35,142 bases of DNA, from the IMG/VR virus record IMGVR_UViG_2526164668_000014; one strand, written 5' to 3'. The translations under genes and the position numbers were made by a program. The notes beneath the pieces are model-generated. The model had not been told where the DNA came from. It saw only the letters and a list, made by a program, of their open reading frames with translations, and did not search any database. This DNA is from a virus (lineage: Duplodnaviria > Heunggongvirae > Uroviricota > Caudoviricetes). Within the stretch, counting starts at the first letter, position 1. The number at the start of each line of letters is the position of its first letter. Shown in pieces: positions 9,917 through 28,341 of this stretch.

Positions 9917-10215
9917 AAAATTCCTTAATACTGATAACTTGGCGCACTATACACACGTTCCTGAAGAAAGCTATAGTTTTTTGATGGGGTTGAAGATGGC
10001 TGGATGTCTAAAATAAACATTGCTTCATATGTTCAACTATGCGTTAATGATTGCGTCGGTTTGAAGAACAGACGATATACGAAGTAGTTTACTAAAGCAG
10101 TTCTCATTTCAGGTGTTATTCACTTATTCCTTCTTTGAGTCTCTCCAATTAAGTACGAAGTCGTTTCTGTTATGCAAACCATTTATGCCGAAAGGCTCAA
10201 GTTAAGGAATGTAGA

Positions 10216-22185: not shown

Positions 22186-22509
22186 ATGGCAAAGAATTTT
22201 GTAGAAGAAGGAAAAACGGTGGCGATTGTTGCCAGTGCAGCCATCAGCAGCGGAGATCTGGTGCAGGTGGGTGATGTTTTTGCGGTGGCGCTGACCGATA
22301 TTCCACAGGGAGAAACAGGCGACGGCATAACCGAAGGTGTGTTTATGCTGCCTAAGCTGAAAACGGATGACATGAAAACGGGTAAGAAGGTTTATCTGAA
22401 GTCAGGAAAAGTTCAGCTGACTAACAGCGGCTCTGATCCGCTGGTCGGGGTTGTATGGGCAGATGCCGGAACCAGTGCAGAAGAAGTGCCGGTAAAACTC
22501 AATGTCTGA
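22186..22509 (+). CDS. Small head-associated protein (possible decoration or connector protein)
   Basis: 107 aa after GGAGA SD, directly downstream of the capsid gene. Confidence 0.5.
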   Translation: MAKNFVEEGKTVAIVASAAISSGDLVQVGDVFAVALTDIPQGETGDGITEGVFMLPKLKTDDMKTGKKVYLKSGKVQLTNSGSDPLVGVVWADAGTSAEEVPVKLNV

Positions 22510-23765: not shown

Positions 23766-23775
23766 GGAGGTGGTA

Positions 23776-24519
23776 ATGACCACACCAAATCCACTGGCAA
23801 AGACGAAAGGTGCGGGGACGACGTTCTGGATGTATACCGGCAACGGCGATGCGTTTGCGAACCCTTTGTCGGACACTGACTGGCTGCGTCTTGCGATGGT
23901 GAAGGATCTGCAACCTGGCGAAATGACCGCTGATGCAGAAGATGACACTTATCTCGATGATGAAGATGCAGACTGGAAAACGACAACCCAGGGGCAGAAA
24001 TCCGTTGGTGATACTTCGGCGACGCTGGCCTGGCGTCCGGGTGACAGCGGGCAGAAAAAACTGGTTCAGTTGTTCGACTCCGGTGAAGTCTGCGCGTTTC
24101 GTATCAAATATCCCAACGGCACTGTTGATGTTTTCCGTGGCTGGCTGAGCTCACTGGGTAAAACCATTGCCTCAAAAGACGTGATGACCCGCACTGTGAA
24201 AATCAGCGGTGTGGGGCGTCCGTATCTGGCAGAGGAAGGCACTGAAACCGTGAGCGTTACCGGGCTGACAGTATCACCGGCGTCTGCCAGTGTAAAAGTG
24301 GGAGCAACCACCACGCTGACCTTTACAGTAAAACCTGACGGAGCCAGTGACAAAGCGATCAGTGTGCATTCGTCAGATCCACAGACTGCCACGGTTACCC
24401 TGAACGGACTTGTGGCCACGGTAAAAGGCGTGAAGCAGGGCAGTGTCAGCATTGTGGGCATGACCGCTGACGGGAATTTTGTGGCTGTGACTGCGGTGAC
24501 TGTCAGCGCAGCAGGTTAA
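23776..24519 (+). CDS. V: Major tail protein V with C-terminal Ig-like (Big_2) domain
   Basis: AAGGAGG SD; 247 aa; C-terminal TVSPASASVKVGATTTLTFTVKPDGASD... Ig-like repeat. Confidence 0.85.
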   Translation: MTTPNPLAKTKGAGTTFWMYTGNGDAFANPLSDTDWLRLAMVKDLQPGEMTADAEDDTYLDDEDADWKTTTQGQKSVGDTSATLAWRPGDSGQKKLVQLFDSGEVCAFRIKYPNGTVDVFRGWLSSLGKTIASKDVMTRTVKISGVGRPYLAEEGTETVSVTGLTVSPASASVKVGATTTLTFTVKPDGASDKAISVHSSDPQTATVTLNGLVATVKGVKQGSVSIVGMTADGNFVAVTAVTVSAAG

Positions 24520-24539
24520 CAGGACGATACTCATCATTT

Positions 24540-24563
24540 GCCCCGGTTATGCGGGGCTTTTTT
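24540..24563 (+). terminator. Rho-independent terminator between V and G
   Basis: GCCCCG-GTTATG-CGGGGC hairpin followed by TTTTTT. Confidence 0.6.
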
Positions 24564-24576
24564 GCAGGTGGAGAAC

Positions 24577-24966
24577 ATGATGTTTCTGAAACAGGACACG
24601 TTTAATTATGAAAAACAGTCCGTGGTGCTCAGTGAGCTGTCCGGGCTGCAGAGAATTGAATATCTGACGTTTGTTCAGCAGCGAACGGCAAAGTTTGATG
24701 CCGGGGAGGGAGAACTGCCGGAGGCTGAACGACAGATTGCTTTTCTGCGGATGGGGATGGATATCAATGCCTGGCTGGTTTCCCGCTCACTGTGGAATGC
24801 GGATCAGTCTAAGGATGTAGAGACGCTTTGCGCATCCGTTATTACAACATGGTCGTATGATGCCCTGGGTGCGGGGGCGGAGATGGTTCTGTCGCTGAGC
24901 GGTATGGGGGCCATTGATAATGCCGTGGATGATGAGCATGAGGCGCTGACGCCGGAAAAGTCCTGA
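24577..24966 (+). CDS. G: Tail assembly chaperone G
   Basis: MMFLKQDTFNYEKQSVVLSELSGLQRIEYL resembles remembered lambda G (MFLKTESFEHNGVTVTLSELSALQRIEHL). Confidence 0.8.
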   Translation: MMFLKQDTFNYEKQSVVLSELSGLQRIEYLTFVQQRTAKFDAGEGELPEAERQIAFLRMGMDINAWLVSRSLWNADQSKDVETLCASVITTWSYDALGAGAEMVLSLSGMGAIDNAVDDEHEALTPEKS

Positions 24967-25304
24967 CGCGGGAAATGCAGTTTGTCATGCGGCTTGCCCG
25001 GGAGTTCCGGCGGGCAGACTGGCGGCGGATGCTGTCGGAAATGTCTGCCACTGAGCTTGGTGAGTGGGGCGATTATTTCCGGATGCAGAGCTTCAGTGAT
25101 GTGTGGATGGATGCACAGTTTGCCTCGCTGAAGGCATTGATCGTGAGAATGGTGTCCGGCAGCAGTGATGCTGCGGTGGCTGATTTCAGCCTTTTACCGG
25201 AAGAGAACGGGATACCGGAGCGAACGGACGAAGAACTGATGCATCTTGGGGAAGGTATTTCCGGAGGTGTGCGTTATGGACCAGATAGCCAACCTGGTCA
25301 TTGA
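24942..25304 (+). CDS. T: T segment of the G-T chaperone, expected to be expressed by a -1 frameshift from G
   Basis: The -1 frame is open from 24942 and overlaps the last 8 codons of G; candidate slip site GGAAAAG at 24954-24960. Confidence 0.6.
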   Translation, partial: GADAGKVLTREMQFVMRLAREFRRADWRRMLSEMSATELGEWGDYFRMQSFSDVWMDAQFASLKALIVRMVSGSSDAAVADFSLLPEENGIPERTDEELMHLGEGISGGVRYGPDSQPGH

Positions 25305-28300
25305 TTTGGGGATTGATGCGGCAGAGTTTAAAAATGAAATTCCCCGTATCAAAAACCTTCTGAATGGTGCAGCCAGCGATGCAGAACGGTCTTCTGCCCG
25401 TATGCAGCGTTTTATGGAGCGTCAGACTCAGGCCGCCCGGCAGACAACGCAGGCAGCTTCTTCGGCTGCAACAGCCGCATCCGTCCATGCGCAGACGGTG
25501 GAGAAGAACGCACAGGCTCATGAACGCATGGCCCGCGAGGTGGAGAAAACCCGCCAGCGCATGGAGGCACTGAGCCAGAAAATGCGCGAGGAACAGGCGC
25601 AGGCCATGGCTCTGGCGGAGGCTCAGGATAAAGCGGCTGCTGCGTTTTATCGTCAGATTGACAGTGTGAAACAGGCCAGTGCGGGGCTGCAGGAATTACA
25701 GCGTATTCAGCAGCAGATCCGACAGGCCAGAAACAGTGGCGGGATTGGTCAGCAGGATTATCTGGCGCTGATTTCTGAGGTTACTGCGAAAACCCGTGTT
25801 CTTACACAGGCTGAGGAAGAGGCTACCCGACAGAAAGTGGCGTTTATCCGTCAGCTTAAAGAGCAGGCAACCCGCCTGAATCTTTCATCTTCTGAGTTGC
25901 TTCGTGCTAAGGCAGCCCAGTTGGGGGTAAGCAGTGCTGCAGAAGTGTATATCCGCAAAATGGAGCAGGCAGGAAAAGCCACGCATTCGCTGGGTCTGAA
26001 AAGTGCAGCAGCCCGCCAGGAGATAGGCGTTCTGATAGGTGAACTGGCCCGCGGCAATTTAGGGGCGCTGAGGGGATCCGGGATAACGCTGGCTAACCGT
26101 GCCGGATGGATAGACACACTGATGTCACCGAAAGGCATGATGCTTGGCGGGGTTATTGGCGGTATTGCCGCGGCCGTCTATGGTCTGGGTAAAGCCTGGT
26201 ATGACGGTCAGAAGGAGGGGGAAGAATTTAACCGCCAGTTGTCGCTGACGGGGCATTATGCCGGAGTCACTGCCGGGCAGCTGTGGACGCTCAGTCGTGC
26301 TATTTCCGGGAATGGTATCACGCAACATGCTGCAGCCGGTGCGCTGGCTCAGGTGGTGGGGAGTGGTGCATTTCGTGGAAACGATATCGGTATGGTGGCG
26401 AGAGCTGCCGCACAGATGGAGCGATCGGTTGGCCAGTCGGTCAGCGATACCATAAATCAGTTTAAGCGGCTGAAGGATGATCCTGTAAATGCCGCGAAGG
26501 CTCTGGACAATGAGCTGCATTTTCTTACTGCCACTCAGCTTGAGCAGATACGTGTCCTTGGGGATCAGGGACGGTCCAGTGATGCTGCACGGATAGCCAT
26601 GTCTGCACTGGCAGAGGAAACCGGTCGGCGTACTGCGGATATTGATAATAACCTCAATGCGCTTGGCAGTACGCTGAAGTATCTGTCTGATTTGTGGAGT
26701 CGTTTCTGGGATGCGGCCATGAATATTGGTCGTGAAGACTCGCTGGATGAACAGATTGCCGCTTTACAGGAGAAAGTGTCGCGGGCGAAAAGACTCCCCT
26801 GGACGGCATCATCTTCTCAGGTTGAATACGATCAGCAGCGTCTTAACGATCTTCAGGAGAAAAAACGCCAGAAGGATTTGCAGGATGCAAAAGAGCAGGC
26901 AGAGCGGAATTATCAGGAGCAACAGAAACGCCGTAATGCTGAAAATGCTGCACTGAACCGGATGAATGAAACGGAAGCAGCACGACATCAGCGTGAAATT
27001 GCGCGTATTAATTCCATGCAGTACGCCGATCAGACTGTCAGGGATGCAGCGATACAAAGTGAAAATGAACGTTACGAGAAAGCCCTAGCATCCGGTAAGA
27101 AAAAAACACGCGAAACCCGTAATGATGAGGCCACCCGGTTATTGCTGCAGTACAGTCAGCAACAGGCACAGGTGGAAGGACAGATTGCTGCTGCAAGACA
27201 GTCAGCAGGCATTGCCACTGAAAAGATGACAGAAGCGCATAAACAGCTTCTGGCTCTGCAGCAGCGCATCAGCGATCTGGACGGGAAAAAACTGACGGCA
27301 GATGAAAAGAGTGTGCTGGCCCGTAAAGATGAACTGATTCAGGCACTGACGCTGCTGGATGTAAAACAGCAGGAGCTTCAGAAACAGACGGCACTCAACG
27401 ATCTGAAGAAAAAAACAATTCAGCTGACCAGTCAACTGGCTGAAGAAGAGCGCGCTCAGCGTCAGCAACATGACCTGGATATCGCCACGGTGGGTATGGG
27501 TGATCAGCAGCGGCAGCGATATCAGGTACAACTGAGTCTTCGCCAGAAATACCAGCAACAGCTGGAGCAGTTGAGGCGGGATAGTGAGCAGAAAGGGACA
27601 TATAACACGGATGACTACAGAAAGGCCGAGCAGGCGCTGACGGAGAGCCTGAACCGACAACTGAATGAGAATCGCCGTTACTGGCAACAGCTTGAAGTTG
27701 TGCAGGGTAACTGGAAAAACGGAGTCCTGCGTGCATTTCAGGATTTTACCGTGGATGCAGACAATACGGCAGGAACAGCAGAACAGGTGTTCTCGTCAGC
27801 CTTCAGCAACATGGGAAATGGCCTGGCAACTTTTGTCACTACCGGCAAACTCAACTTCAAATCCTTCACCTCTTCGGTGCTGTCAGATATGGCGAAAATT
27901 CTGGCGCAGGCAACCATGATGAAATCGATAAAAGGGATTGGCAGTGTACTGGGATTTGATCTCAGCAGCCTTTCCCTGAATGCCAATGGGGGGATTTATC
28001 AGTCTGCTGATTTGAGTCGTTACAGTGGCACGGTGGTTAACCGTCCGACGTTTTTTGCTTTTGCAAAAGGCGCGGGTGTGATGGGGGAAGCTGGACCTGA
28101 AGCCATTCTGCCACTGCGTCGTGGTGCTGACGGTAAGCTGGGGGTTGTGGCGGATATTGGTGGTTCAGGTATGGCGATGTTTGCCCCGCAGTACAACATC
28201 GAGATCAATAACGATGGCACGAACGGGCAGATAGGTCCGGCTGCCCTGAAGGTGGTTTATGACCTTGGGAAAAAAGCAGCAGCGGACTTTATGCAACAGC

Positions 28301-28341
28301 AGGCCCGTGATGGTGGTCGGTTAAGTGGAGCATATCGGTAA
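25276..28341 (+). CDS. H: Tail tape measure protein H
   Basis: About 1021 aa, long coiled-coil Q/A/E/R-rich, positioned between G-T and M. Confidence 0.85.
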   Translation: MDQIANLVIDLGIDAAEFKNEIPRIKNLLNGAASDAERSSARMQRFMERQTQAARQTTQAASSAATAASVHAQTVEKNAQAHERMAREVEKTRQRMEALSQKMREEQAQAMALAEAQDKAAAAFYRQIDSVKQASAGLQELQRIQQQIRQARNSGGIGQQDYLALISEVTAKTRVLTQAEEEATRQKVAFIRQLKEQATRLNLSSSELLRAKAAQLGVSSAAEVYIRKMEQAGKATHSLGLKSAAARQEIGVLIGELARGNLGALRGSGITLANRAGWIDTLMSPKGMMLGGVIGGIAAAVYGLGKAWYDGQKEGEEFNRQLSLTGHYAGVTAGQLWTLSRAISGNGITQHAAAGALAQVVGSGAFRGNDIGMVARAAAQMERSVGQSVSDTINQFKRLKDDPVNAAKALDNELHFLTATQLEQIRVLGDQGRSSDAARIAMSALAEETGRRTADIDNNLNALGSTLKYLSDLWSRFWDAAMNIGREDSLDEQIAALQEKVSRAKRLPWTASSSQVEYDQQRLNDLQEKKRQKDLQDAKEQAERNYQEQQKRRNAENAALNRMNETEAARHQREIARINSMQYADQTVRDAAIQSENERYEKALASGKKKTRETRNDEATRLLLQYSQQQAQVEGQIAAARQSAGIATEKMTEAHKQLLALQQRISDLDGKKLTADEKSVLARKDELIQALTLLDVKQQELQKQTALNDLKKKTIQLTSQLAEEERAQRQQHDLDIATVGMGDQQRQRYQVQLSLRQKYQQQLEQLRRDSEQKGTYNTDDYRKAEQALTESLNRQLNENRRYWQQLEVVQGNWKNGVLRAFQDFTVDADNTAGTAEQVFSSAFSNMGNGLATFVTTGKLNFKSFTSSVLSDMAKILAQATMMKSIKGIGSVLGFDLSSLSLNANGGIYQSADLSRYSGTVVNRPTFFAFAKGAGVMGEAGPEAILPLRRGADGKLGVVADIGGSGMAMFAPQYNIEINNDGTNGQIGPAALKVVYDLGKKAAADFMQQQARDGGRLSGAYR

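Follow-up and report, generated by a model that had tools for sequence, protein, structure and literature searches.

The G and T genes and their surroundings

We analysed a stretch of 35,142 nucleotides of phage DNA (the window). The region examined here comprised the letters of positions 24400-25500 and their translation in three frames. By sequence comparison it is 97-99.7% identical to the E. coli phages PhiR55_1, mEp460, cdtI, Ayreon and others. Judged by its sequence, the source belongs to the lambdoid E. coli phages of the mEp460/cdtI type.

The genes follow in the order V, G, an open reading frame in the -1 frame, and the tape measure gene (Table 1), the same V-G-T-H arrangement as in lambda. 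The two overlapping ORFs are flanked by the genes for the major tail protein and the tape measure protein, and the start of the latter gene overlaps the end of T by 29 nt. The hairpin between V and G corresponds to one that the records of mEp460 and Ayreon mark as a rho-independent terminator. Of 5426 complete E. coli genomes, 1846, about a third, contain this very G-T module.

Table 1. Genes, reading frames and candidate regulatory features around the G/T overlap (positions in the window)
Feature	Position	Strand	Basis or remark
Major tail protein V homologue	23773..24519	+	PF16461 (5.1e-67) and Big_2; major tail protein in public annotation
Terminator-like hairpin GCCCCG-GTTATG-CGGGGC followed by T6	24540..24563	+	between V and G
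Gene G, tail assembly chaperone, 128 aa	24580..24966	+	ATG 24580 as in RefSeq/PGAP; TGA 24964-66
GAGG, possible weak Shine-Dalgarno-like stimulator	24940..24943	+	10 nt 5' of the heptamer; hypothetical
-1 frame ORF (T frame), 120 codons	24942..25304	+	preceded by TGA 24939-41; stop 25302-04
Candidate slip heptamer GGAAAAG, phase G GAA AAG	24954..24960	+	sole re-pairing site in the overlap; conservation
T part as translated after the slip, 114 aa, VLTREMQFVMRLAREF...	24960..25301	+	frame translation
Predicted G-T fusion CDS, 241 aa	24580..25304, join(24580..24960, 24960..25304)	+	matches the G and T equivalog models
'T' annotated as its own CDS starting at an internal ATG, 109 aa	24975..25304	+	public records of mEp460, PhiR55_1 and RefSeq
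Tape measure protein	25276..28341	+	PF06791, PF09718, PF24622; start taken from public annotation

The upstream ORF belongs to the gpG family. It matches PF06894 (3.8e-40) and the phage_lambda_G equivalog model TIGR01674 (184.7 bits, cut-off 74.45), and the records of mEp460, PhiR55_1 and RefSeq E. coli name it G. In mEp460 the start is placed at ATG 24577, which gives 129 aa instead of 128 aa. The downstream ORF, a member of the gpT family (PF06223, 5.1e-15), is read in the -1 frame and has no conserved start codon of its own. When the two frames are joined into a conceptual fusion of 241 aa, the phage_lam_T model TIGR01715 matches residues 132-238 (134.1 bits, cut-off 77.35). This match begins five residues past the junction and upstream of the annotated ATG 24975. 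The junction peptide of the predicted fusion is ...EALTPEK/VLTREMQ..., with the slash at the junction, and the spanning sequence is EALTPEKVLTREM. G and T are given as separate genes in mEp460, Ayreon, PhiR55_1 and RefSeq E. coli.

The candidate slip site and its known counterparts

The G frame ends with ...GAG GCG CTG ACG CCG GAA AAG TCC TGA, and its overlap with the -1 frame is 25 nt (8 codons and 1 nt). All eight pairs of P-site and A-site codons of the overlap were enumerated. Only one pair can re-pair after a shift by one base, GAA moving to GGA and AAG to AAA; each of the remaining pairs would incur at least two transversion mismatches. Alternative slip sites within the overlap were rejected on this enumeration. 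By moving from AAG to AAA, the only tRNA-Lys of E. coli stays on a cognate codon. In the shift from GAA to GGA positions 1 and 3 are kept, and tRNA-Glu, with its anticodon UUC, can form a G.U pair at position 2.

These results agree with the preliminary description, in which the -1 frame (T) was open from 24942 and G stopped at 24966, any shift was confined to the eight codons between, and GGAAAAG in the context CCG GAA AAG was the only candidate. The two coordinates are borne out by the sequence and the frame translations, the confinement by the length of the overlap, and the choice of the heptamer by the enumeration. The description had also noted that GGAAAAG is not of the form XXXYYYZ and departs from the GGGAAAG of lambda. 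This is correct as well, the third position being A, and lambda indeed has GGGAAAG at the homologous codons.

Thus, GGAAAAG does not formally fit the pattern X_XXY_YYZ: its position 3 is A and not G, and the P-site shift alters the second codon position. Still, it appears to act like a heptamer of this type. The tetramer pattern Z_ZZN (Sharma et al. 2014) is represented by an in-phase A_AAG with cognate re-pairing in the A site (A AAG, 24957-60). Predictors limited to X_XXY_YYZ heptamers will miss the GGAAAAG site. GGAAAAG occurs 12 times on both strands of the 35 kb, with about 6 copies expected. From the latter number, the chance of an in-phase GGAAAAG in a given interval of eight codons is about 6e-4. 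A chance origin of the heptamer was ruled out by its conservation.

The same heptamer is annotated in other phages. In the GenBank record of N15 a misc_feature at 10027-10033, the 'slippery sequence for -1 translational frameshift', reads GGAAAAG. In the record of LLS, a joined CDS is accompanied by a 'minus-one programmed translational frameshift site GGAAAAG'. The site is of a recoding type already described in a known phage family, and, given the N15 and LLS annotations, the GGAAAAG variant is not new. Furthermore, a 'twofour' slippery motif is listed among annotated tail-chaperone frameshifts in the PRFect paper (PMC10885494), and this name would stand for XXYYYY.

Genes 14/15 of N15, gp13/gp14 of phi80 (ACG GCG GAA AAG) and genes 11/12 of LLS share with the source phage the heptamer, its phase, the G/T overlap and the setting between the major tail and tape measure genes. 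However, their G proteins are only about 33-35% identical to that of the source phage. The codon preceding GAA AAG is GCG or GTG in these phages, as opposed to CCG here, the G stop lies five codons past the heptamer and not one, and there is no GAGG 10 nt upstream.

In Gifsy-2, the genes STM1039/STM1041.1n belong to the same G clade (56% identity) and have the identical end ACG CCG GAA AAG TCC TGA. The Gifsy-2 record describes the downstream ORF as 'part of G+G' frameshift hybrid protein' and leaves the slip site unnamed. The overlap there is 31 nt, compared with 25 nt here, and T has no in-frame ATG close to its beginning.

A further relative is lambda (Levin, Hendrix & Casjens 1993; Xu, Hendrix & Duda 2004, 2013, 2014). 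It has the same TIGR01674 and TIGR01715 families, the same genomic position and direction of shift, a homologous slip-site lysine codon, and the same presumed function, the setting of the G:GT ratio for tail assembly (PMC5009743). The differences are in the site itself and in the extent of divergence. Lambda has the canonical G GGA AAG with GGA (Gly) in the P site, whereas here this codon is GAA (Glu) and re-pairing needs a G.U pair at the second position. The lambda G protein is 32% identical to that of the source phage, and the overlap is 64 nt in lambda and 25 nt here.

Conservation of the predicted slip site

Some 360 related loci were drawn from IMG/VR, from GTDB genomes and from phages in GenBank, and the end of G was analysed in each of them. 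A scan of genome contigs with the G alignment yielded 11 loci, including relatives with GGGAAAG from Serratia and Symbiopectobacterium. The clade to which G of the source phage belongs comprises loci from E. coli, Shigella and Salmonella, Gifsy-2 among them, and one locus from Symbiopectobacterium, with G protein identities of 42-100%.

Over this whole range of identity, an in-phase GGAAAAG stands one codon before the G stop (184 of 184 usable loci). The length of the overlap varies within the clade between 19 and 46 nt, and the heptamer is always inside it. The shortest overlap, only 19 nt, was observed in three Salmonella relatives (L103, L105 and L107) ending in T TCG CCG GAA AAG TCC TGA. 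Hence an in-phase slippery sequence is conserved in the relatives within the overlap.

The conservation is seen at the protein level and at synonymous positions. The residues Pro-Glu-Lys just before the last residue of G are invariant, and the rest of the acidic G tail is highly variable. Among 58 distinct CDS, there are 31 invariant amino-acid columns with degenerate codons; a single codon is used in 8 of them, and three of these 8 are the consecutive CCG, GAA and AAG. This pattern shows purifying selection on the heptamer at synonymous sites. The base preceding GAAAAG is G in all 266 loci that have this sequence. It occupies a four-fold degenerate position in CCG, GCG and GTG, upstream of the translated part of the -1 frame.

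The -1 frame gives a complementary picture. Its peptide is conserved throughout the superfamily from GK/VL..E..F...LAREF.R.DWR.ML onwards (the slash marking the junction), and the sequence upstream is unrelated. Conservation of the -1-frame protein begins exactly at the slip-site lysine. This lysine is 11 residues before the LAREF motif of T in the source phage, in lambda and in LLS, and the distance is the same in every clade.

Different heptamers are found at the same place. The Serratia locus L094 and the Symbiopectobacterium loci L093 and L095 (35-36% G identity) have ACG CCG GGA AAG TCT TAG, that is, GGGAAAG at the very position of GGAAAAG, one codon before the stop. At the homologous codons, lambda and 80 lambda-type loci read GCG GGA AAG, and GAA AAG preceded by GCG or GTG is found in phi80, N15, LLS, an Enterobacter Ravinvirus and about 80 relatives from IMG/VR. 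Altogether, of the three large clades into which the sampled lambda-like G/T genes of enterobacteria fall, two use GGAAAAG. Since GGAAAAG and GGGAAAG occupy homologous codons across clades, the former is a recurrent and interchangeable one-base variant of the latter, and not an oddity of the source phage.

Expression of T and the proposed slippage

The preliminary description read the G-T overlap as a programmed -1 frameshift of the lambda type. This reading is supported by the G and T families, by the uniqueness of the site and by its positional homology. We consider it very probable that an ordinary programmed -1 ribosomal frameshift at the predicted slip site G GAA AAG makes a lambda-type G-T fusion. 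Most ribosomes would translate G to its stop codon and produce the chaperone of 128 aa. A minority would slip one base back on G GAA AAG, with tRNA-Lys in the A site moving from AAG to its cognate AAA, and tRNA-Glu in the P site moving from GAA to GGA with positions 1 and 3 kept and G.U at position 2. Reading would then resume with GTC CTG ACG... and continue to 25304, giving a fusion of 241 aa with the junction ...TPEK/VLTRE....

In lambda, G together with GT covers the tape measure protein and T brings in the major tail protein, at a G to GT ratio of about 30:1 (PMC5009743). By analogy, G and the G part of GT would coat the tape measure protein of the source phage, the T part would recruit its major tail protein, and a low rate of slippage would set the G:GT ratio. 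The sequences themselves establish the layout of the locus, the gene families, the match in position to G GGA AAG of lambda and the selection on the heptamer; the occurrence of slippage, its rate, the manner of slippage (two tRNAs or tRNA-Lys alone) and the roles of the proteins are all what we infer here.

A different possibility is that T is an independent gene translated from ATG 24975 without any frameshift, and that the overlap of 25 nt is incidental. There is indeed an in-frame ATG at this position, and it is from this codon that the public records (mEp460, PhiR55_1, RefSeq) derive the 109-aa T. However, relatives do not all keep this start: in Gifsy-2 (L084) and L107 the T frame is devoid of ATG, GTG and TTG up to approximately residue 28-32 of the -1 ORF. 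Their first in-frame starts come after the conserved segment LAREFRRPDWRR, and therefore T cannot be expressed alone in these phages. Moreover, the -1 frame is already conserved upstream of ATG 24975 (K VL..E..F), and the TIGR01715 match begins upstream of it as well. The purine-rich run before this codon is only GGGAA at a distance of 0-2 nt, too close under the normal rule of Shine-Dalgarno spacing. Finally, an independent T would not explain the synonymous invariance of CCG GAA AAG. For lambda, Levin et al. in 1993 reportedly found that T is made solely as GT. The same is stated in a later summary, where T is produced only as a part of GT (PMC5009743). On the comparative evidence of start codons, -1 frame conservation and extent of the TIGR01715 match, independent translation of T was rejected. 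T starting at ATG 24975 is probably not an independent gene, and a frameshift-free arrangement with an incidental overlap seems to us highly improbable.

The probable lambda-type frameshift has a consequence for annotation. In the RefSeq, mEp460, cdtI-type and PhiR55_1 records, T stands as a CDS by itself that starts at a non-conserved ATG. Biologically little is gained, the G-T frameshift being a classic example of recoding, and the practical gain is a correction of these annotations from T to the joined G-T product.

The loss of one A in transcripts of the AAAA run at 24956-24959 would give the same change of frame by transcriptional slippage, with no ribosomal slip involved. It is well established that productive slippage of this kind needs runs of about 7-9 or more identical bases; the subject is reviewed in PMC5009743. 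Four As are far too few for it. Besides, neither the conserved flanking G nor the terminal G of the heptamer is explained by such a mechanism, and its probability is practically negligible.

If the slip is ribosomal, it might still be made by tRNA-Lys alone on the tetramer A AAG, either while it is still in the A site or after it has reached the P site, ahead of the next codon TCC, and without meaningful re-pairing of tRNA-Glu. No tetramer in E. coli shifts more readily than A_AAG, which attains 5.6% when helped by a strong pseudoknot (PMC4066793), and the second-position mismatch of the GAA to GGA shift was deemed unfavourable by Peng et al. (PMC6924986). However, without a stimulator the lone tetramer is at background in vivo, approximately 0.15% (PMC4066793), and no downstream stimulator was found here. 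Nor does a pure tetramer model predict the G before GAAAAG, which is present in 266 of 266 loci in three codon contexts and is not constrained by the protein. The invariant G thus argues, with moderate force, for slippage of two tRNAs with tRNA-Glu on GGA over slippage of tRNA-Lys alone; the force is only moderate because CCG, GCG and GTG are preferred E. coli codons. The two models cannot be separated by sequence, since their protein product is identical. On balance, we regard slippage of tRNA-Lys alone as unlikely, although it deserves to be kept in mind.

Whichever tRNAs take part in the programmed frameshift, the site itself is a weak one. In the reconstituted E. coli system of Peng et al. 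(2019), AUG GAA AAG served as the 'less slippery' control for G GGA AAG and gave mainly the 0-frame product (PMC6924986). By published data, GGAAAAG is intrinsically weaker than the canonical site. The work of Peng et al. was the only one relevant to GGAAAAG in the literature searched, in which no experimental support for any G-T site with this heptamer was found. It follows from the comparison of clades that a sequence used in vitro as a 'poorly slippery' control, G GAA AAG (PMC6924986), is relied on by two of the three large clades. This poses a mechanistic question, that of a P-site mismatch tolerated by a natural low-level frameshift, and directs attention to the efficiency of G GAA AAG in vivo and to the role of the upstream GAGG.

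Candidate stimulatory elements

We folded 70-100 nt downstream of the heptamer in the source phage, Gifsy-2 and the lineage represented by L124, and none of the folds was more stable than those of shuffled sequences (z-scores of the 70-nt folds 0.5, -0.8 and 0.2). An alignment of 10 diverse lineages contained no conserved or covarying fold in this region (consensus -8.5 kcal/mol, covariation term -0.12). The only 'conserved' helix in the alignment fold paired the flank of the slip site with the DWR codons of T. A downstream stimulatory structure was rejected on these grounds, and the strong hairpin or pseudoknot on which Z_ZZN sites depend to exceed background (Sharma et al. 2014) was not found here.

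The frameshift site of E. coli dnaX (A AAA AAG with an upstream Shine-Dalgarno element and a downstream hairpin) shares with G GAA AAG the A-site slip of tRNA-Lys from AAG to AAA and, possibly, a Shine-Dalgarno-like element about 10 nt upstream. Unlike in dnaX, the P-site codon here is not canonically slippery and a downstream hairpin is lacking. Efficiency is expected to reach a few percent at most, as opposed to approximately 50% in dnaX, and the products and their biology are unrelated.

One possibility is that in this clade frameshifting on the weak G GAA AAG is boosted, as in dnaX, by the Shine-Dalgarno-like GAGG or GGAG situated 10-11 nt upstream. In sites of the dnaX type such an element is expected about 10-14 nt 5' of the slip site, and elements at the distance seen here are reported to enhance the -1 frameshift of dnaX (Larsen 1994). 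Such a boost complements the programmed frameshift at G GAA AAG and does not replace it. A core GGAG, GAGG or AGGA at this spacing is present in most lineages of the clade, compared with 6.7% of the background. At the GAGG site, all 25 distinct relatives that have glutamate encode it by GAG, and elsewhere in the tail there are 26 GAG and 23 GAA codons. However, the figure of 25 out of 25 is overstated because the sequences are related and represent about 7 independent lineages, and the glutamate itself may be under selection at the protein level. The core is only 4 nt long, and 14% of background positions form an anti-Shine-Dalgarno duplex at least as good as the -5.6 kcal/mol of GAGG. The element is also absent from the L124/L115 lineage and from the whole phi80/N15/LLS clade, which shares the heptamer. 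On balance, stimulation by such an element is a rather doubtful possibility.

On the other side, among relatives with the canonical heptamer, L093-L095, which have GGGAAAG, and lambda lack the Shine-Dalgarno-like element. It may be, and we suggest this with somewhat greater reserve still, that GAGG or GGAG raises the weak G GAA AAG of the mEp460/cdtI/Gifsy-2 clade to a useful efficiency, and that G GGA AAG of lambda needs no such help. If the boost is real, exchanges of GGGAAAG and GGAAAAG, together with gain and loss of the upstream element, would be the means by which lambdoid phages tune the G:GT ratio.

Probable slip sites at the G-T junction

The tail assembly chaperone gene G of four related loci from IMG/VR (L108-L111, 37-40% identity in G) ends with ...CCA CTG GCA AAA TAG, and neither GGGAAAG, the slip heptamer of lambda, nor GGAAAAG, the candidate heptamer of the window, is present at this end. 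Despite that, the T frame is retained in -1 in all four (121-125 codons). Slippage would likely take place on A AAA beside the stop codon (G GCA AAA TAG), giving a third variant of the G-T slip site.

Counted over both strands, the window has 12 copies of the heptamer GGAAAAG (6.1 expected), a number reached in 1 of 100 shuffles. The plus-strand copies at 22405 and 25972 are out of the X_XXY_YYZ phase in their ORFs.

Two database proteins, P0039 and P0025, are natural in-frame G-T fusions that arose by deletions. In P0039, G runs from approximately residue 96 straight into ...AGKVLTREMQ, and in P0025 ...SLSG is joined to FVMRLAREF. These may be assembly artefacts, or else come from defective prophages producing only the fusion protein GT.

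Features flanking G and T

Coordinates of features in the window
Feature	Position	Strand	Description
ORF, 739 aa	19880-22099		apparent protease-capsid fusion, judged by eye from translation
Terminator-like hairpin	24540-24563	+	stem-loop GCCCCG GTTATG CGGGGC, then TTTTTT
Tape measure gene start	ATG 25276	+	GGAGGTG upstream of the ATG

The strong terminator-like hairpin sits in the 60 nt that separate the major tail gene from G, and is annotated as a rho-independent terminator in mEp460 and Ayreon. It may reduce transcription of G, T and the tape measure gene relative to that of the major tail protein.

G starts with tandem ATG codons (24577 and 24580). The first is the annotated start in mEp460 (129 aa), and the second in RefSeq and PhiR55_1 (128 aa). 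Nearly all database homologues of G have the N-terminus MFLK.

The final 29 nt of the T frame (25276-25304) are also the first of the tape measure gene, and therefore ribosomes completing GT terminate within the tape measure start region. Translation of GT and of the tape measure gene may be coupled through this overlap.

Capsid region

The 739-aa ORF looks like a putative fusion of a ClpP-like prohead protease and an HK97-type major capsid protein.
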